DNA from: a virus
Length of the DNA: 39,935 nucleotides
UHGV virus genome: UHGV-0040432
Direction: 5' to 3' (one strand)
Shown here: positions 4,573-37,298 of the stretch, piece after piece
How the letters are laid out: the number at the start of each line of letters is the position of its first letter
Numbering within the stretch: position 1 is the stretch's first letter
Program-made: the position numbers and the translations under genes
The notes under the pieces: model-generated
Seen by the model: only the letters and a program-made list of their open reading frames with translations
Told to the model about the DNA's origin: nothing
Databases searched by the model: none

Positions 4573-4944
4573 TCACTGAGCCGCTTTAAGCTTTCCATCC
4601 ACCGCGCCAGTGATCCCGAACAGCTGGCCCTGATCTTCCTGCAGGATGGTGAGCTTCCCGCCTTTGTTGACCCACATCGGGGTTTCGGTTGTGTCCTCTT
4701 CGGAAGCCTTACCACGCGGTGTCGGGGTGCTGTAGTTCAGCTTGTGCTTGATCTTGACGCGCTTCTCTTCAACGGAATTACCCATGCGCTCAAAATCAAA
4801 TGTGAGGACTACTTTGCCTTTGTTGCCGTTGTTCAGAACGCCAAGCGCGGTGGTATTAAGTGCTGCCGCGATTTTGTTCATGAACACGCCGGCATCCAGT
4901 TCGCCAAGAAAATCTGGCACTACGGTCATGCGGTCATTACTCAT
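4573..4944 (-). CDS. Hypothetical prophage protein (YfdP-like); first gene of the leftward early operon
   Basis: 123-aa ORF; GAGGG Shine-Dalgarno upstream of the ATG on the minus strand. Confidence 0.55.
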   Translation of the reverse strand: MSNDRMTVVPDFLGELDAGVFMNKIAAALNTTALGVLNNGNKGKVVLTFDFERMGNSVEEKRVKIKHKLNYSTPTPRGKASEEDTTETPMWVNKGGKLTILQEDQGQLFGITGAVDGKLKAAQ

Positions 4945-5815
4945 GGTTTTACCCTCGTTAAGGCGGCTGCCACCGCCGAACTTTCTCCATACACAACAGA
5001 GAAGGGCATCTGCATTGGTCCGCGGCTTGCAGGGACCGCTTTCTTTTTGCCCGGGTGGATTGGGTTATGAGCCCGTCGCCCGGTGATGCCCTTTTCTGTT
5101 GCGTAAAAAGGGCGGTACCGAGGTAGAACATTATCTTCGTCCCCCTTGCATAAGGTTGAAGACCCTGGTACCGCCAAGACTACACACAGCAATACTGGAA
5201 CTACGGTTATCACGGTCCTAAGCGTGATTTGGTTGTGGTGGCCGGTGCTGCGATATTCCGGCATGGGTTGATTACCAGTGACGCACCCTTTCGGGACACT
5301 CCCTCACGGTTTAGCGCATCAGCCTGCGCATTCACCACAACGAAGAGAACATTGCCGGTGTTCGAATCGAACGAACCTTTTCCCTGCCCAACCCTCCCAA
5401 CTAAATGGGACTGTCTGGAATCGAACCAGCACTTATGCCTTGCTCGTCAATGTTCTCATCGTTGTGCCCTGAAAAAGGCTGGCGGTTACCGGACAAGTGG
5501 GAAAACACCGGGCCGCCAGAACAGGGAGTTACTTGTTATAGCTTTGGCCTGCTTTTAACCACATCAGGCGCGGTGGTAGGTATCTTCGGGCGGGGTGCTA
5601 AGGGGGTGATTAGCCCTTGCCCTTAACACTCCTGCTGGTTTTGGTATTCCTGGCTTGGGTATCGCCACCAGCTATAGGAATTTGACTACGAGTCGCGGTT
5701 AATCAGACCGCGTCTCTGTTACCCCTCCCGAAGACACCTGTCAGCGAATCATCCGGTTATTCATACGCCACCGGCGGCTACTTCGTGGGCGTCCTGCCTG
5801 TTCGCTATGGAGTAG
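4945..5815 (-). other. ORF-free leader of the PL transcript; candidate structured noncoding RNA region
   Basis: No minus-strand ORF of 60 aa or more between 5265 and 5922; plus-strand ORFs here overlap in three frames with implausible composition; several GC-rich inverted repeats. Confidence 0.4.
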
Positions 5816-5867
5816 ACAATAAAATTAAATTGCGAATAACGCAAGTATTAAATTGCGATTTGCGCAA
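5816..5867 (-). promoter_or_regulatory. PL-like promoter with two OL-like operators
   Basis: Minus strand reads TTGCGT-17 nt-TATTGT (plus coordinates 5839..5844 and 5816..5821); operators TTGCG-N5-CGCAA at 5830..5844 and 5853..5867. Confidence 0.55.
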
Positions 5868-5922: not shown

Positions 5923-6615
5923 TCAGGCGTGGCGTTTGAATGATTGAGATTGGCTTATCATTACCTTCCCAAAAATGTAAAAACGGTGTTCGTTTGTCTC
6001 ATCCACAGACCATTCTCTATATTTTGGGTTATCCGATATCACCAACAACTTATCAGGTATCATCTGTAATCGTTTGACGTAAATTTTATCATCAAAACCA
6101 AATACATATATTCCATCACCATCGAATTCATGAATAGAGATATCAACGAAGAGAAGATCACCAGGTTCGATAGTCTCAGCCATACTGTCGCCTCGAACGT
6201 TGATTACTTTTACTTGATCTGCCGTTCTTCCGCCGAACATCGCTAGCGCACGTTCATTGTTGTATTCGATTGACCTGATGACATCAATAATATCGCTGCC
6301 TTGAATAAAGCCACCACCAGCGCTGGCACTTACATCAAGAATCTCCACTCTAAACACAGATCCATCTCCAGAATGTGGGTTACTACCACTGTATTCACAT
6401 ACAGTAGTTTTATTTCCGCCTGGAGTAAATAGATCAGCAACGCTAACGCCTAAAGCTTGAGCATATTTGCTAAGTGATTGTTCAGTAAATGACTTCTGTT
6501 TGCCGGTTTCTACGCGCGAGATGTTAGCTCCGTCGACACCAACGGCTTCAGCAAGATCAGCGATTTTTAGACCCTTCGCTGTGCGAAGTTCTCTTATGCG
6601 GTTTCCTATGTTCAT
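5923..6615 (-). CDS. cI: cI-like repressor (N-terminal HTH, C-terminal S24 LexA-type peptidase domain)
   Basis: HTH segment IRELRTAKGLKIADLAEAVGV and GDSM serine motif with downstream Lys. Start set at the ATG giving MNIGNRIREL; track ORF begins at an upstream TTG (6678). Confidence 0.8.
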   Translation of the reverse strand: MNIGNRIRELRTAKGLKIADLAEAVGVDGANISRVETGKQKSFTEQSLSKYAQALGVSVADLFTPGGNKTTVCEYSGSNPHSGDGSVFRVEILDVSASAGGGFIQGSDIIDVIRSIEYNNERALAMFGGRTADQVKVINVRGDSMAETIEPGDLLFVDISIHEFDGDGIYVFGFDDKIYVKRLQMIPDKLLVISDNPKYREWSVDETNEHRFYIFGKVMISQSQSFKRHA

Positions 6616-6635
6616 GCGTCTATTACATGTTTTTT

Positions 6636-6698
6636 TTGCGTGATGTGCAAAGCAACTTGCGCAAGTCGTACGTTCCAATTAATATGCGTATTACGCAA
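6636..6698 (+). promoter_or_regulatory. OR region: PR promoter overlapping three operator-like palindromes
   Basis: PR -35 TTGCGC (6657..6662), 17-nt spacer, -10 TAATAT (6680..6685); operators at 6636..6650, about 6655..6671 and 6684..6698. Confidence 0.6.
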
Positions 6699-6712: not shown

Positions 6713-6958
6713 ATGCAATCACCGTTACGAATCTTGCGTAAATCGCAAGGTATGACTCTTTCCTGTGTAGCAAAAGGGGTTGATATCGACCCGGGAAATC
6801 TAAGTCGGATAGAGCGAGGGCAGCAAATTGCTTCCCTAGATATTGCTGAACGTCTAGTCCGTTTCTTCTCGGGAAAAATCAATGAGCTAGAAATTCTTTA
6901 CCCACATCGCTATTCGAACTGTACAGGCGCGAGTACAGACATAAAACCACAGGAATAA
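6713..6958 (+). CDS. cro: Cro-like HTH regulator (XRE family)
   Basis: 81-aa ORF divergent from cI; AGGAGGG Shine-Dalgarno upstream; HTH segment RKSQGMTLSCVAKGVDIDPGNLSRIERG. Confidence 0.8.
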   Translation: MQSPLRILRKSQGMTLSCVAKGVDIDPGNLSRIERGQQIASLDIAERLVRFFSGKINELEILYPHRYSNCTGASTDIKPQE

Positions 6959-6968
6959 GGGGTTAACC

Positions 6969-7520
6969 GTGGGTAACGAACCTATTTGGAAAGTTGAACG
7001 CCAGCCAGCCTGGCTGGTGGTAGCGATTAAAAGAACGATTACCGATCTACCTGGTGGTTATGCCGAGGCGGCGGAATGGTTGGGCGTGACAGAGAACGCA
7101 TTGTTTAACCGCCTTCGTGTCGACGGGGATCAGATCTTCCCTATGGGATGGGCGATGGTATTACAGAAAGCCGCCGGTGTTAGCTACATAGCTGATGCGT
7201 TTTCTCGCCAAACAGATAACGGGATCCATATCCCGGGTGCGGCACCAGAAACAGAGAACGAAGAGATTGGCTTAAAACTGGCTGAGCTGGTGGGCAGGCT
7301 TGGTGACCTGGTTAACGCATATCGTCGATACATCGATGATGGTGTGGTTGATAAAGGGGAGTGGGACAGTCTGAACGAAATCGCCTACCAGTTCCGGGTA
7401 ACGCTTATGACGTTTCTGAACCTGATTTCACGAGTCTATTGCCTTCCAGAAAAGAGTGACGCCCGCGAGTGTGCAGCTCCGGGCGCCTTGGCGAACAACT
7501 CTTCGAGTATGGAGAAATAA
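6969..7520 (+). CDS. CII-like regulatory protein
   Basis: 183-aa ORF with GTG start directly after cro; HTH-like AEWLGVTENALFNRLR; positional analogy to lambda cII. Confidence 0.5.
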   Translation: MGNEPIWKVERQPAWLVVAIKRTITDLPGGYAEAAEWLGVTENALFNRLRVDGDQIFPMGWAMVLQKAAGVSYIADAFSRQTDNGIHIPGAAPETENEEIGLKLAELVGRLGDLVNAYRRYIDDGVVDKGEWDSLNEIAYQFRVTLMTFLNLISRVYCLPEKSDARECAAPGALANNSSSMEK

Positions 7521-8719: not shown

Positions 8720-9597
8720 CGTTAAACAAATATTGCCAGGCGCTGGCGGCACTACGTAGCCAACCAGCCCACGAACTGAAAGAAGTTGGCGATCAGTGGC
8801 GGACACCGGATCTGCTTTTCTGGGGTATCAACGCGCTATTTGGTCCATTGATTCTGGACTTGTTTGCTGACGACGACAACGCGAAGTGCCCGGCATGGTA
8901 CACCGCCGAAGATAACGCGCTGACGCAGGACTGGTCTGAACGTCTGGCAGAACTGGGCGGCGCTGGTTATGGCAACCCTCCGTATAGCCGTTCTCAGTAC
9001 CACGAGAAGCAGGCGATCACCGGCATGACGCACATCATGAAGTACGCAGCAGCCCAGCGCGAGAAGGGCGGTCGCTATGTATTCCTGATAAAAGCCGCGC
9101 CGAGTGAAACGTGGTGGCCGGAAGATGCCGATCACATTGTATTCATTCGCGGGCGCATTGGGTTCGATCTGCCTGTGTGGTTTGTACCTGCTGACGAAAA
9201 ACAGAAACCCACCAGCGCGTTTTTTGCCGGTGCCATAGCTGTATTCGATAAGTCATGGCGTGGTGAGCGGTTCAGCTATATCAACCGCACAGAACTGGAG
9301 GCAAAAGGTCGGGCATTTATGGCGCTGGCTCAATTCGCTGTTGGCAAAGAGCCGACAATTGCAATGCGGGCACCCCAGGAGCCAGTCATACCATCGGAAA
9401 CTGAGTCACGTATCTGGCCTCTCGAGGTTGGTCTGGTGTTTAACCAGGTGGAAGGCGTTGCCGTATTGAGTGAGGCTCAGCAGAACAAGCTGAAAGCCAA
9501 CATCAATCAACTCTGGCTGGAACGAACTGCCACCAGCGAAATTATCACAATTGCGCGTGGTCTTGTTGGCAGCATGCAGGGGGTAATCCATGCGTGA
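8716..9597 (+). CDS. DNA N6-adenine methyltransferase (phage Dam-like)
   Basis: 293-aa ORF with GNPPY catalytic motif; ATGA overlap with the rep gene. Confidence 0.7.
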   Translation: MTLNKYCQALAALRSQPAHELKEVGDQWRTPDLLFWGINALFGPLILDLFADDDNAKCPAWYTAEDNALTQDWSERLAELGGAGYGNPPYSRSQYHEKQAITGMTHIMKYAAAQREKGGRYVFLIKAAPSETWWPEDADHIVFIRGRIGFDLPVWFVPADEKQKPTSAFFAGAIAVFDKSWRGERFSYINRTELEAKGRAFMALAQFAVGKEPTIAMRAPQEPVIPSETESRIWPLEVGLVFNQVEGVAVLSEAQQNKLKANINQLWLERTATSEIITIARGLVGSMQGVIHA

Positions 9598-12604: not shown

Positions 12605-13596
12605 GAGCTCTGCTTACCCCCGAGATCGCCCATCGTATGGGGATTGTGCTGTTCCGTCCCGGTGCGGAATTGATGCACCTCTTCATGCGTGGTCGCGTTC
12701 TGCTCGAGCCTGAACCAGAAGAAATGGCGTCATTCAGTACCGGGGCTGTTCCGGCAGCCATTCAGCCGCTGGCTGATGATCCGGTAATGCGGCAGGTCTT
12801 CGAGAATGAGAGGGTTATTCAGCGTGCCGGTGGGCTTCCTTCCCTTGAGCAATGGTTGAGTAATCGGTTTGAATGCCAGTGGCCACATTCAACGTGGCAC
12901 GACAAGAACTTCACAACAATGCGGCACCCACCAGGAAGTATTCGCCTGTGCTGGCATTGCGATCACACTTTGTCGGGGCAGCATACCGAACAGCTTGCAG
13001 GTATAGCGGCAGGAAACCTGGTATCCTGGATTCTGGAAGTCATTCGGCGTGATTCTGGTTTTCCCGAGTCGCATATCCTGACGCTTCCGGAACTGTGCTG
13101 GTGGATGGTCAGAAACGACCTGGCTGATGTTATTCCGGAAAGCGTTGCGCACAAAGGGCTGCGCCTTCCGGATGAGAAGATCCGTTCTGTCATGAGGGAA
13201 AGCGACATAGTGCCTTCCTCGTCAGCAACCAGACTCGTGCAGGAGAAGGCGAAGAAGATCCTCACGCTCTCTGTTGATCCGGAGTCGCCAGAGTCTTTCA
13301 TGCTCAGGCCAAAACGTCGCCGCTGGATAAATGAGACGTACACCCGCTGGGTTAAAACACAACCCTGTGAGTGTTGCCGACGGCCAGCAGATGATCCGCA
13401 CCATATCGTAGGGCACGGTATGGGGGGGACAGCAACAAAAGCCCATGACCTCTTCGTGATCCCTCTGTGCAGAGAGTGCCACGACGAGTTACACGCCGAC
13501 GTACCGGCATTCGAGCAGAAGCATGGTACGCAGCTTGAGCTGCTACTGCGTTTTATGGATCGGGCGCTGGCGATCGGCGTAATTGCGAAAGCTTAA
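12601..13596 (+). CDS. Phage protein with C-terminal HNH-like zinc-binding nuclease domain (DUF968-like)
   Basis: C-terminal CECC...HHIVGHG...CRECHDELH motif; GTG start overlapping the upstream stop; the start is uncertain (an in-frame ATG lies at 12637). Confidence 0.5.
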   Translation: MRALLTPEIAHRMGIVLFRPGAELMHLFMRGRVLLEPEPEEMASFSTGAVPAAIQPLADDPVMRQVFENERVIQRAGGLPSLEQWLSNRFECQWPHSTWHDKNFTTMRHPPGSIRLCWHCDHTLSGQHTEQLAGIAAGNLVSWILEVIRRDSGFPESHILTLPELCWWMVRNDLADVIPESVAHKGLRLPDEKIRSVMRESDIVPSSSATRLVQEKAKKILTLSVDPESPESFMLRPKRRRWINETYTRWVKTQPCECCRRPADDPHHIVGHGMGGTATKAHDLFVIPLCRECHDELHADVPAFEQKHGTQLELLLRFMDRALAIGVIAKA

Positions 13597-22893: not shown

Positions 22894-24952
22894 TCCCCGC
22901 GCCAGTGTGGCTGGTATCGATGCCGCAAACGGTCAGTGCTGGTATGAGATTCGCGCACTGGCTGCAGGGCGTGTGGAAATATTTCTCTATGACGTGATCG
23001 GCGGCTGGGGGATTACCGCTCAGCAGTTCGTCTCCGACTGTAAGGAGGCCGGGGTGTTTGAGGCCAGCGCTGTCGATCTACATATCCACAGCCCGGGCGG
23101 CGATGTGATGCAGGGATTTGCCATCTTTAACACCTTGTCCCGTCTGAAGGCGAAGCTGGATATCTGGGTGGACGGCGTGGCTGCCAGTATGGCTTCAATG
23201 ATTGTCTGCCTGCCCGGTGCCACGGTGCATATGCCGGAAAACGCCTGGCTGATGGTACACAAGCCGTGGGGCGGGATCGCCGGGGATTCCGATGATATGC
23301 GTGATTACGCTGCCTGGCTTGATCGTAATGAAGCGCTGATGCTCAGTGCCTACATGAACAAGACCGGGCTGGGGCAGGAAGAACTGGAGGCGATGCTGAA
23401 AGCTGAAACCTGGCTTAATGGCGCGGAGGCGGTGGAAAAAGGTTTCGCTGACACGCTTGAACCAGAACTGCAGGCCGCGGCCTGTGTGAATCAAAATAAA
23501 CTGAAGGATTATCAGAATATGCCAGAACAGATTAAAAACCTTTTTGGGCCGCGTGCCGAAGGCCCTGCAAGTCAGCCGCAACCCGCACAAAACCCGGCGC
23601 CGCAGGCCGCAAATAACCCACCGGCACAGCAACCCACCCAGCAACCGCTGGCAGGAAATATCGACATTACCGCGCTGGCCGCCCAGCTCCAGCAGCAGAT
23701 GCAGGCGGCGAATACTGAACGAGTAAGCGCAGTTTCCGCTGTGTTTGATGCGTTTCCTGCTTTCGGCTCGCTGAAAGCAGAATGCATCACGGATATTTCC
23801 TGCTCAGCGGAACAGGCCCGCACCAAATTGCTCAATGCGCTGGCGGCAGGCACTACCCCGAGTGCCGGACCGGGTGCAGTTCACATCCATGCGGGTAACG
23901 GGAACATTGTTGGTGATTCCATTCGTGCGGCGGTAATGAACCGTGCGGGCTATGCGCAGGCGGAAAAAGATAACGCCTACAACGGGTATACCTTGCGCGA
24001 ACTGGCCCGCGCCTCGCTGGTGGATCGTGGTATCGGTATTTCTGGTGTCGGTACCGCACAGGCGATGGTTGGGCTGGCGTTCACCCACAGCAGCAGTGAT
24101 TTCGGCAATATCCTGATGGATGTGGCGCATAAGGCGGCATTGCTTGGCTGGGATGAGGCCAGCGAAACATTCGAACAGTGGACCCGTAAAGGCACACTGA
24201 CCGATTTCAAAACCGCACACCGCGTTGGCCTGGAGTCACTGGCATCGCTGCGTAAGGTTCGCGCCGGGGCGGAATATAAATATGTCACCATTAAAGATCG
24301 CGGTGAGCCGATTGCACTGGCCACCTATGGTGAGCTTTTCAGCATTGACCGCCAGACTATCATCAACGATGACCTGGATATGCTGACGCGTATCCCGCAG
24401 GCAATGGGGCTTGCTGCGCGAGCTACTGTAGGCGATCTGGTCTGGGCTGTACTGACCAGCAACCCGAAAATGTCGGACGGTAAGCCGTTGTTCCACGCCG
24501 ATCATGGCAACCTTGTTGCAGCCGATCTGAGTATTGAAGGGCTGGATACTGCACGTAAGGCAATGCTGCTGCAAAAATCCGGCGATCGTCGTCTGAATAT
24601 TCGTCCGGCCTACATGCTGACGCCAGTGGCAATTGAGTCACGGGCAAACCAGCTGATTAAGTCCGCCAGCGTACCTGGCGCAGACGCGAACAGCGGGATC
24701 GTTAACCCGATCCAGAACTTTGTGACAGTGGCTTCTGAGGCCCGCCTGGATGACAGCAGCCCGACGGATTTTTACCTGACTGCTGCGCAGGGGCGCGACA
24801 CCATTGAAGTGGCCTATCTGGACGGTATCGACACGCCGTATCTGGAGCAGCAGCAGGGCTTTACTGTGGACGGTGCCGCATTCAAGGTGCGCATTGATGC
24901 GGGTGTGGCCCCGCTTGACTGGCGCGGGCTGGTTAAAGTCACCAAAAAATAA
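22886..24952 (+). CDS. Prohead protease (ClpP/S14 family)-scaffold-major capsid fusion protein
   Basis: ClpP-like Ser motif (GVAASMASM) and His motif (HKPWGG) in the N-terminal third; Gln/Pro/Ala-rich linker; about 400-aa C-terminal domain consistent with a major capsid protein. Start uncertain (22850 or 22886). Confidence 0.7.
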   Translation: MINPRASVAGIDAANGQCWYEIRALAAGRVEIFLYDVIGGWGITAQQFVSDCKEAGVFEASAVDLHIHSPGGDVMQGFAIFNTLSRLKAKLDIWVDGVAASMASMIVCLPGATVHMPENAWLMVHKPWGGIAGDSDDMRDYAAWLDRNEALMLSAYMNKTGLGQEELEAMLKAETWLNGAEAVEKGFADTLEPELQAAACVNQNKLKDYQNMPEQIKNLFGPRAEGPASQPQPAQNPAPQAANNPPAQQPTQQPLAGNIDITALAAQLQQQMQAANTERVSAVSAVFDAFPAFGSLKAECITDISCSAEQARTKLLNALAAGTTPSAGPGAVHIHAGNGNIVGDSIRAAVMNRAGYAQAEKDNAYNGYTLRELARASLVDRGIGISGVGTAQAMVGLAFTHSSSDFGNILMDVAHKAALLGWDEASETFEQWTRKGTLTDFKTAHRVGLESLASLRKVRAGAEYKYVTIKDRGEPIALATYGELFSIDRQTIINDDLDMLTRIPQAMGLAARATVGDLVWAVLTSNPKMSDGKPLFHADHGNLVAADLSIEGLDTARKAMLLQKSGDRRLNIRPAYMLTPVAIESRANQLIKSASVPGADANSGIVNPIQNFVTVASEARLDDSSPTDFYLTAAQGRDTIEVAYLDGIDTPYLEQQQGFTVDGAAFKVRIDAGVAPLDWRGLVKVTKK

Positions 24953-36869: not shown

Positions 36870-37298
36870 ATGAACAAATATTTATATGACGCTAGGACGA
36901 ATGCCTTTTACCCATTAAGCCTTCAGGGGGATTATGAAGCGGCCAACACCTGGCCGGCGAGTGGTGTGGAAGTTGATGATGACGTTTTTAAAACATTTCA
37001 ATCACCACCTCCGGGTAAAATGATGGTGGCCGGTAAAGATGGCTATCCGGCATGGGCTGATGTTCCTCCACCATCCAAAGAAAACATTGTTGCTGCCGCT
37101 GAAATTGAGAAACAGTCCAAGATTGATCAAGCTAACGACTATATGAACAGTAAGCAATGGCCCGGGAAGGCCGCTATGGGGCGATTGAAAGATTCAGAAA
37201 AGGTGCAATACAACGCCTGGCTGGATTATTTGGATGAACTGGAGGCTGTGGATACAGCGGCTGCGCCAGACATTAAATGGCCTGAAAAACCAGAATAG
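36870..37298 (+). CDS. Tail fibre assembly protein (Tfa, gpG-like)
   Basis: 142-aa ORF directly after the fibre gene with Tfa-like composition. Confidence 0.7.
   Translation: MNKYLYDARTNAFYPLSLQGDYEAANTWPASGVEVDDDVFKTFQSPPPGKMMVAGKDGYPAWADVPPPSKENIVAAAEIEKQSKIDQANDYMNSKQWPGKAAMGRLKDSEKVQYNAWLDYLDELEAVDTAAAPDIKWPEKPE

Follow-up and report, generated by a model that had tools for sequence, protein, structure and literature searches.

Structured RNA modules in the non-coding PL-operon leader of virus genome UHGV-0040432

What fills the 0.87 kb between the early-left promoter (PL) and the first early-left gene of virus genome UHGV-0040432? The window analyzed here is the whole 39,935-nucleotide (nt) stretch of this genome, and the interval in question covers positions 4945 to 5815. 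An earlier note on this DNA had proposed a large structured RNA. Our analysis showed that the interval is a non-coding leader of the PL operon, on the minus strand, built of conserved, independently occurring structured-RNA modules, and that these RNA families are widespread, separable, and absent from Rfam. The proposal thus holds for the non-coding and structured character and for the transcribed strand, but the interval consists of separable modules and is not one RNA.

A modular leader on the minus strand

The leader folded with a minimum free energy (MFE) of -343 kcal/mol, compared to -293.5 +/- 9.2 kcal/mol for shuffled sequences (z = -5.4), and six long inverted-repeat pairs were found in the interval. 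BLAST against phage genomes matched the interval in pieces only, and the conserved blocks were delimited by these local matches. The matching phages were Citrobacter phage phiNP, Salmonella phage ST64B, Shigella phages SfV and SfII, the Stx2-converting phages Stx2a_1447 and WGPS2, Edwardsiella phage EPP-1, the Uetakevirus members SPN1S and SPN9TCW, and others. In every lambdoid relative, a gap of 0.8 to 1.2 kb that carries no annotation separates cI from the first early-left gene. The modules recur in hundreds of phages, independently and in differing combinations. Since they were found separately, a single obligate RNA of 0.87 kb was rejected; their independence and the two terminator-like hairpins between them make the interval a mosaic leader of several RNA families. 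The modules are, in the direction of transcription (numbers beginning with L denote relatives and loci used for comparison):

5743 to 5806, minus strand: element E, 64 nt, with outer stem AGCGAA/UUCGCU, invariant core GGCAGGACGCCCACGAAGUAGCC, and inner hairpin CCGGU-GGCGUAUGAAUA-ACCGG
5571 to 5746, minus strand: domain PD, a 26-nt long-range helix with arms 5746-5721 and 5596-5571 and core CAGGUGUCUUCGGGAGGGG/CCCCGCCCGAAGAUACCUG (inverted repeat I1)
5558 to 5577, minus strand: small hairpin ACCAC-CGCGCCUGAU-GUGGU, conserved in L001 and SfV
5471 to 5519, minus strand: T1, an intrinsic-terminator-like hairpin, CUGGCGG...CCGCCAG followed by CCUUUUUC
5336 to 5466, minus strand: P0, a 19-bp helix with arms 5466-5448 and 5354-5336 and one conserved U.U mismatch (inverted repeat I2)
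5232 to 5341, minus strand: TLM, a tRNA-like three-way junction, with P1 UGUGGUG/CACCACA (5339-5333/5240-5234), P2 GCGCA-GGCUGA-UGCGC (5329-5314), a variable domain (5313-5263), P3 GCCGG-loop-CCGGC (5262-5241) abutting P1, and a tail ACCA
5209 to 5229, minus strand: HP3, hairpin AAUCACG-CUUAGGAC-CGUGAU, directly 3' of TLM
5176 to 5191, minus strand: single-stranded conserved stretch UGCUGUGUGUAGUCUU, just before T2
5103 to 5175, minus strand: T2, a long intrinsic-terminator-like hairpin, GGCGGUACC...GGUACCGCC followed by CUUUUUAC (inverted repeat I5)
4992 to 5102, minus strand: P5, a second P0-like helix, GCAACAGAAAAGGGCAUC/GAUGCCCUUCUCUGUUGUG (inverted repeat I3)

The conserved helices of E, P0, P5, and TLM covary in homologues. 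In E, P0, and TLM together, G.U pairs outnumbered A.C pairs by 99 to 16, a count biased in part by member selection; the unbiased E set gave 13 G.U pairs versus 4 A.C pairs, and P0 gave 57 versus 10. The elements are also co-oriented with PL, tRNA genes, and the terminator-like hairpins. Taken with the U-runs and with how the elements are oriented to promoters and tRNA genes, the G.U excess indicates that the RNA is read from the minus strand.

Rfam 15 gave no relevant match for the window or for a compact family member at gathering or permissive thresholds, and ARAGORN found neither tRNA nor tmRNA in the window. Searches of papers yielded no description of these elements, with the limit that literature coverage is incomplete and an earlier description is possible; the literature on Pas, HnrS, and anti-sRNAs concerns other loci. 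A search for antisense targets of the leader within the window, the output of which was dominated by trivial self-matches, gave only chance-level 11-mers.

The earlier note had stated that no open reading frame (ORF) of 60 or more amino acids exists on the transcribed strand. This was wrong: a 107-amino-acid ORF runs from 5264 to 4941 on the minus strand, overlying TLM P3, HP3, T2, and P5, and its stop codon overlaps the next start codon (AUGA). Neither this ORF nor the other ORFs of the interval matched Pfam, and sequence inspection revealed no Shine-Dalgarno sequence ahead of its AUG. Among 45 homologues, substitutions were spread over codon positions 1, 2, and 3 as 240, 193, and 226, and 130 of 160 indels broke the frame. 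The coding reading was rejected on the missing Pfam match, the even substitutions, and the frame-breaking indels. No conserved coding frame was thus found in homologues, and the broader statement that 4945 to 5815 holds no credible gene stands, as the ORF lacks a coding signature. That the interval is a frameshifted pseudogene or a small real gene is accordingly most improbable. It would fit the existence of the ORF with its overlapping stop, the frame being open across P5 in 54 of 99 homologues (closed in the other 45), and partial, weak PHROG matches of the region, but those matches span only 23 to 41 residues and lie on conserved RNA helices.

Two PHROG families without an assigned function were matched in part by spurious ORFs that overlie the RNA modules at 5229-5558 (plus strand) and 4958-5131 (minus strand), namely, phrog_36251 (E = 9e-14, 41 residues) and phrog_33599 (E = 1e-9, 23 residues). 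Both "protein families" were probably built in part from ORFs mis-called on conserved RNA. As at least two such families seem to rest partly on RNA motifs, recognition of the motifs would improve phage annotation.

The leader lies beside a lambdoid immunity region. An S24/HTH cI-like repressor gene occupies 5923-6678 on the minus strand (domain search and ORF list), with a cro-like gene at 6713-6958 and a YmfL/cII-like gene at 6969-7520 on the plus strand; the YmfL name was taken from the syntenic gene in relative L001. To the left of the gap, on the same strand as the leader, are an sb37-like gene (4573-4944; phrog_204), a DUF2303 gene, and one further ORF. Adjoining cI on its left are a terminator, two operator-like repeats, and a promoter. 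The borders of the leader were read from the sequence as follows:

5816 to 5867, minus strand: PL-like promoter, -35 TTGCGT at 5844-5839, 17-nt spacer, -10 TATTGT at 5821-5816
5867-5853 and 5844-5830, minus strand: two operator-like repeats TTGCG..CGCAA, flanking the PL-like promoter
4977-4962, minus strand: last hairpin GGCGG-UGGCAG-CCGCC, ahead of the first gene's ribosome-binding site
4956-4952 and 4944-4942, minus strand: Shine-Dalgarno sequence GAGGG and start codon of the sb37-like gene

From the promoter position, the PL start site would lie near 5809. This agrees with the start of about 5808 proposed in the earlier note, although a consensus promoter scan of the window missed the promoter, and the ORF list likewise places the start of the first early-left gene at the predicted ATG (4944). 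All the sequence motifs named in that note were located within a few bases of where it had placed them. The inverted repeat CTGGCGG/CCGCCAG (5479-5485/5513-5519) is the hairpin T1, and GCCCTTTT/AAAAGGGC (about 5088-5095/5106-5113) is pair I4 of our inverted-repeat search. The "terminator" at 5008-5040 on the plus strand turned out to be the mirror image of a variable minus-strand RNA hairpin (5039-5017). The T-loop-like GGTTCGATTCC was found at 5427-5417 on the minus strand, a second TTCGATT hairpin lies at 5377-5357, and the remark on T-loops pointed to modules that are genuinely related to tRNA.

Element E at the 5' end of the transcript

E begins a few bases after the predicted PL start site. 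The scans for E and for TLM were seeded on fixed words and gave at least 120 loci each; for E, the seed was its invariant 23-mer, and at least 92 distinct variants were obtained. In these, 94.9% of cells were paired and 10 of the 11 base pairs had changed on both sides. The covariation score was 0.707, compared to 0.195 after shuffling and at most 0.14 when the pairing was slid. The E covariance model matched the window once, with 95 bits, and gave one match per locus. A strict sigma-70 pattern was present at most 80 nt upstream of E in ~70 of 108 leaders, and E starts about 25 to 30 nt past the -10 box in the examples listed, in which the operators differ widely between phages. Relatives have other promoters and operators, yet an equal distance to E. 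With a sigma-70 pattern just upstream and the operators varying, these leaders place E at the transcript's 5' end.

The sequence GCUCUUUAACAA, which we take to be the Escherichia coli rrn boxA consensus, occurs behind a hairpin at a fixed offset after E in 21 of the 108 leaders; in L212, L215, L226, L242, L250, and others, the hairpin and the motif lie about 87 nt past the start of the E core. An rrn-type boxA in this place suggests that antitermination in these N-less phages could depend on Nus factors. The interval 4945-5815 itself contains no boxA with up to three mismatches and no N-like ORF, as had been noted before, and an arm of the PD helix, GUGUCUUCGGGAGGGGU, stands at the boxA position instead. 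The PD helix closes off about 124 nt, among them the hairpin GCGG-UCUGAUUAA-CCGC (5711-5695). It is present in the MFE fold and is kept in about 20 related leaders with exchanges between GUGUC/GACAC and GUAUC/GAUAC.

In many relatives, the first gene after E encodes a small "ClpX C4-type zinc finger" protein (MNHLFTCSFCG...), as in L001 (3076-3441, minus strand) and at the E loci L251 and L260; this gene sits at the position of lambda N. No homologue of the zinc-finger gene or of an orf33-like first gene was found in the window.

E was also considered as a homologue of the put RNAs of HK022 and HK639, and this was rejected on the basis of BLAST, visual comparison, and the E covariance model. 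BLAST similarity to HK022 was confined to the cI gene, and the model found nothing in HK022 or HK639. The HK639 record (L134) includes an "M3-like RNA" after cII (12911-12970, plus strand) and a "putL-like antiterminator RNA" (9188-9313, minus strand), neither of which resembles the leader modules.

The tRNA-like module and its neighbors

Two viral-contig scans, seeded on the D-like arm and on the T-like arm of TLM, yielded at least 150 distinct members. Placed side by side, the homologues gave the consensus GUGGUG-AAU-GCGCA-GGCUGA-UGCGC-[variable]-GCCGG-AGAUCAGCA-CCGGC-CACCAC. A U precedes P1 in 136 of 150 members and an A follows it in 130 of 150, so that the acceptor-like stem has 7 bp. The three stems thus measure 7, 5, and 5 bp. 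The T-like one adjoins the acceptor-like one without a gap, an arrangement shared with tRNA, in which a 7-bp acceptor stem is continuous with a 5-bp T stem beside a D stem of 4 to 5 bp. TLM has neither a 7-nt anticodon loop nor a UUCRANY T-loop. At the anticodon position, it carries an insert whose length varies from 6 to about 180 nt (56 to 226 nt for the whole module), and its T-like loop, AGAUCAGCA, has 9 nt, the window copy being a 12-nt variant. ARAGORN did not recognize TLM, and the Rfam tRNA model remained silent even at E <= 10.

Compensatory variants were seen in P2 (GCGUA/UACGU, GACGG/CCGUC, GUGCG/CGCAC, and UCGGA/UCCGA), in P3 (GCAGG/CCUGC, GUUGG/CCAAC, and GACGG/CCGUC), and in the extension of P1 (GGA/UCC and GUG/CAC). 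The stems are nearly sequence-invariant, P1 being GUGGUG/CACCAC in 100% of the selected set. The two loops are complementary (GCUGA/UCAGC) and constant while P2 changes, and in ST64B and SfV these sequences stand on different hairpins with the complementarity kept. A tRNA-like "elbow" between the D-like and T-like arms would fit the stem geometry and the conserved loop complementarity; as both loops are near-invariant, covariation is uninformative on the contact. The window TLM, folded alone, reproduced P1, P2, and P3, and it scored 48.8 bits (E = 5e-11) with R1, a covariance model of trimmed cores that also found the divergent ST64B and SfV copies. Weak matches of the TLM model in the late region, at 23942-24013 (plus strand; 16.0 bits, E = 0.037) and 37020-37077 (minus strand; 13.7 bits, E = 0.15), are probably due to chance.

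The exact 25-nt TLM core was present in 38 species-representative genomes, the hosts including many Enterobacterales, Aeromonas, Moraxellaceae, Hahella, the betaproteobacteria Massilia, Janthinobacterium, and Xenophilus, and one Martelella contig. Phages and prophages of Gamma- and Betaproteobacteria share it without a single difference. TLM was annotated in none of the genome records inspected and has no Rfam family. That its stems and loops are near-invariant across such distant hosts suggests a specific conserved partner, so that a role as a trans-acting mimic is possible. Among the 120 TLM loci listed, ~35 have a cI homologue upstream, most of these with sb37 or DUF2303 genes downstream (a PL leader), and 15 lie just downstream of a Q-like antiterminator gene. 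A tRNA gene is present at 16 loci, co-oriented and within 400 nt upstream or 600 nt downstream at 13 of them. A 40-nt piece of the core also occurs directly upstream of same-strand tRNA genes in unrelated virulent phages, namely, Klebsiella phages of about 46 to 49 kb, Erwinia phage phiEt88, E. coli phage ep3, and an Ackermannviridae phage. The most compact TLM copies, with a J2/3 of 6 nt (L125) or 32 nt (L120), have no P0, a promoter-like sequence directly upstream, and a terminator ~100 nt downstream; from this arrangement, they look like stand-alone small RNA genes.

Two-thirds of the TLMs are preceded by a 19-bp helix, CACAAC...GUUGUG, which is P0. Compensatory variation in P0 is extensive among at least 46 distinct homologues, and its apical domain is variable. 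In the window, the apex bears two T-arm-like hairpins, CUGG-UUCGAUU-CCAG (5429-5415) and GGUUCG-UUCGAUU-CGAACACC (5377-5357), and UUCGAUU loops are found only in these apical hairpins. With the 3' arm of P0 as the seed, a canonical TLM came next in 43 of 126 cases; the other followers were modules with the same or a compensated stem, a real tRNA, or a gene directly. In L371, L388, L401, and others, the module after P0 has an unrelated interior (AAUUAAGCGAAUACCGGAAGCAGAACCGG...) framed by GUGCUG...CAGCAC, a compensated version of the TLM closing stem. A genuine tRNA-Arg(UCU) takes exactly the place of TLM, between a P0-type helix and HP3, in SPN9TCW, L373, and L390; in SPN9TCW (L003; 2428-2650, minus strand), P0 has a double T-loop apex like that of the window, and the cassette lies between the terminase and portal genes. 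In GC-rich phages such as L032 (5857-5954, minus strand) and L033, a tRNA-like gene with a greatly expanded anticodon loop stands in the place of P0 and ends 1 to 4 nt before TLM; one such gene is a tRNA-Pro of 98 nt according to ARAGORN.

P5 folds with -52.6 kcal/mol (z = -5.2) and has compensatory variants in homologues. It encloses the variable hairpin 5039-5017 and the M-hairpin (5083-5051), which in other phages is the apical domain of P0. The M-hairpin carries the 14-mer CGGGCUCAUAACCC, identical to the anticodon arm of a tRNA-Met(CAU) gene in L362 and also matching that of the E. coli initiator tRNA. An M-hairpin variant, CCUGAUGA-CGGGCUCAUAAUCC-AAUCCAUCAGG, directly follows an apparent tRNA 3' end (GGTTCGATTCC...CACCA) in L136, L150, L177, and L034, which is another link of these motifs to tRNA genes. 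In L225, L251, L259, and L275, T1 runs straight into P5; the P0 apex, TLM, HP3, and T2 are absent, which looks like a deletion through recombination of the P0 arms with their P5 homologues.

T1 (-18.5 kcal/mol, z = -2.2) is kept in ST64B, L001, L225, and L259. T2 folds with -29.7 kcal/mol (z = -2.9), and its stem has been swapped wholesale in ST64B (GUCGGCGU/ACGCCGAC) with the U-run retained. Each has a G+C-rich stem with UUUUU behind it on the transcribed strand, and both are candidate intrinsic terminators; a simple terminator scan missed them because their loops exceed 8 nt. Both lie between PL and the first gene. HP3, which is supported by a fold, is kept after TLM and also after the tRNA-Arg that replaces it. 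The stretch UGCUGUGUGUAGUCUU resembles the seed of a small RNA. It lies in a BLAST block (5165-5191) conserved in L001 and SfV and was found also in phiNP, SfV, ST64B, L016, L119, and L123. Judged from sequence, HP3, UGCUGUGUGUAGUCUU, and T2 together have the look of a small regulatory RNA.

Possible functions and comparison with known systems

We favor, with a probability of roughly 0.55, an early-operon leader that combines RNA-based control of read-through (E, T1, and T2) with a tRNA-mimic processing cassette. E would fold once the polymerase leaves PL and would help it to read through T1 and T2 before the first gene, being put-like in position and logic (as HK022 putL) and not a member of the put family. 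In the P0-TLM cassette between T1 and T2, the 7-bp acceptor stem of TLM would be stacked on the T-like arm, the loop of the D-like arm would pair with the T-like loop, and the anticodon domain would be replaced by a freely varying insert. RNase P and 3' processing enzymes could then handle TLM as a tRNA precursor and so punctuate the transcript, freeing the P0 RNA upstream and the hairpin-seed-terminator RNA downstream. P5 would present its tRNA-Met anticodon-arm mimic shortly ahead of the ribosome-binding site.

Several points weigh against this proposal. RNase P cleavage and antitermination are read from anatomy, E has no sequence similarity to the HK022 and HK639 put RNAs and no second copy downstream of PR, and the window lacks boxA. 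In some relatives, E lies ~40 nt ahead of the small zinc-finger gene with no terminator between, and therefore E could act on translation or stability. CCA follows the stem in only about half of the TLM members, tRNA search tools fail to recognize the module, and the stem invariance, which exceeds what pairing needs, hints at a specific partner.

This last point leads to a reading in which TLM, the P0 T-arm hairpins, and the tRNA-Met anticodon-arm mimic act in trans as decoys or inhibitors of tRNA-targeting host nucleases or factors and give early protection. The 25-nt core, identical from Enterobacterales to Betaproteobacteria, implies a conserved molecular partner, TLM stem sequences are held beyond pairing need, the mimics reproduce particular pieces of tRNA (UUCGAUU T-loops and CGGGCUCAUAACCC), and the hypervariable inserts resemble cargo that is diversifying. 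TLM also lies near PL or near Q, at places typical of accessory genes, as described for the "moron" sites downstream of Q (PMC4104026). We nevertheless regard such a role as doubtful: no defense or counter-defense gene is linked to the cassette, TLM has no anticodon arm, the usual target of anticodon nucleases, and resemblance is the sole basis of the idea. In a bolder form, which we entertain only tentatively, the P0-TLM and the T-arm and anticodon-arm hairpins would be an unrecognized class of tRNA-mimic RNA acting in trans on a conserved host machine (e.g., blunting tRNA-targeting immunity or assembling via the complementary loops), and E would be a new promoter-proximal class of RNA that reprograms RNA polymerase in N-less lambdoid phages. 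If, instead, the region were a decayed tRNA gene cluster, with the T-loops, the Met anticodon arm, and TLM as functionless debris, the tRNA-derived motifs, the tRNA genes close to the cassette, the real tRNA-Arg in the place of TLM, and the tRNA with an expanded anticodon loop in the place of P0 would all be expected. However, debris would not hold a 25-nt core identical across bacterial classes, give compensatory changes in P0, P2, P3, and E, or retain the complementary non-tRNA loops GGCUGA and AUCAGC, which makes decay quite improbable.

A role at the DNA level, as recombination "boundary" sequences or cassettes like miniature inverted-repeat transposable elements that have GTTGTGGTG...CACCACAAC as terminal inverted repeats and drive mosaic exchange, seems unlikely. 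Module boundaries do fall at mosaic junctions, the leaders with T1 joined to P5 look as if P0 and P5 arms had recombined, very different inserts occur within the same framing repeats, and the stem sequences are nearly invariant. Yet the G.U excess is strand specific, the elements keep one orientation with respect to promoters, terminators, and tRNA genes, the helices covary, and unpaired loops are conserved; recombination at these sites may be a mere by-product of sequence conservation. We would also give little credence to the whole leader, or P0-TLM, being a large "ornate" RNA that multimerizes by intermolecular GCUGA/UCAGC pairing in the manner of the ROOL and GOLLD cages or the phi29 pRNA ring. 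The modules are separate and occur in many combinations, two terminator-like hairpins cut the leader, Rfam gave no match to ROOL or GOLLD, and the loop-loop pairing may be intramolecular, in the style of the tRNA elbow. These facts outweigh the phage-borne location beside tRNA genes that is shared with ROOL and GOLLD, the high folding z-scores, and the 5- to 6-nt loop complementarity that persists when stems change or, in ST64B and SfV, loops relocate.

The favored reading, a read-through leader with a processing cassette, matters because ST64B, SfV, Stx2a_1447, WGPS2, and other lambdoid phages (e.g., phiNP) have no N gene, and the papers searched offer no explanation of how early-left terminators are passed in them. 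At 64 nt, with strong covariation and always at the 5' end of the transcript, E is a testable candidate for this function. Its nearest parallels are the HK022 putL and putR and the HK639 putL-like RNAs, the position and size of putL being those described previously (PMC9378689). E (5806-5743) likewise sits at the head of the PL transcript, no more than a few nucleotides from the PL start, measures about 65 nt, has stems closed near the 5' end, and occurs in N-less lambdoid phages upstream of terminators. It differs from the put RNAs in sequence, in being a single copy with no PR-side partner, and in topology, with a conserved core and one hairpin inside a single outer stem. The leaders with GCUCUUUAACAA, which there stands after a hairpin, share the boxA motif with rrn and lambda nut sites; the window, with its PD arm there, departs from this pattern.

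ROOL and GOLLD RNAs are, like TLM, encoded by phages or prophages, are often near tRNA islands, and are highly structured, and the GOLLD linker sometimes has embedded tRNAs. Their models gave no match at gathering thresholds or at E <= 10, and the modules here are shuffled, separable units of 60 to 130 nt, unlike one conserved fold of 500 to 800 nt. The bacterial Y RNA YrlA carries a tRNA-like domain on a long helix, and the leader likewise joins a long helix to a tRNA-mimicking module with T-arm features; its parts differ in order and sequence, Rfam gave no match, and the annotated loci that we examined showed no rsr/rtcB neighborhood. Three-way junctions with kissing loops are known from the purine riboswitch fold, and such loops are known from phi29 pRNA; similarly, P1 of TLM closes two hairpins with complementary loops. 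In purine riboswitches, J2/3 is the ligand pocket, whereas that of TLM is hypervariable, and the two are not related in sequence.

The closest comparison for TLM is with tRNA-like signals for RNase P processing, known from the precursors of phage P1 C4 and P4 CI RNAs and from the mammalian MALAT1 mascRNA. There, too, a longer transcript contains a tRNA look-alike whose cleavage would set the ends of the neighboring RNAs. TLM would share with them an acceptor/T-arm stack, a contact of the D and T loops, and interchangeability with a real tRNA. It differs in that the Rfam C4 and tRNA models do not match it, in its 9-nt T-like loop, its predicted Watson-Crick loop contact, and its hypervariable "anticodon" insert, and cleavage is only predicted here. 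TLM is among the most sequence-conserved non-coding elements seen in this study, and it would, if these proposals are true, be a phage counterpart of transcript punctuation by tRNA-like elements or a tRNA mimic of a new kind.

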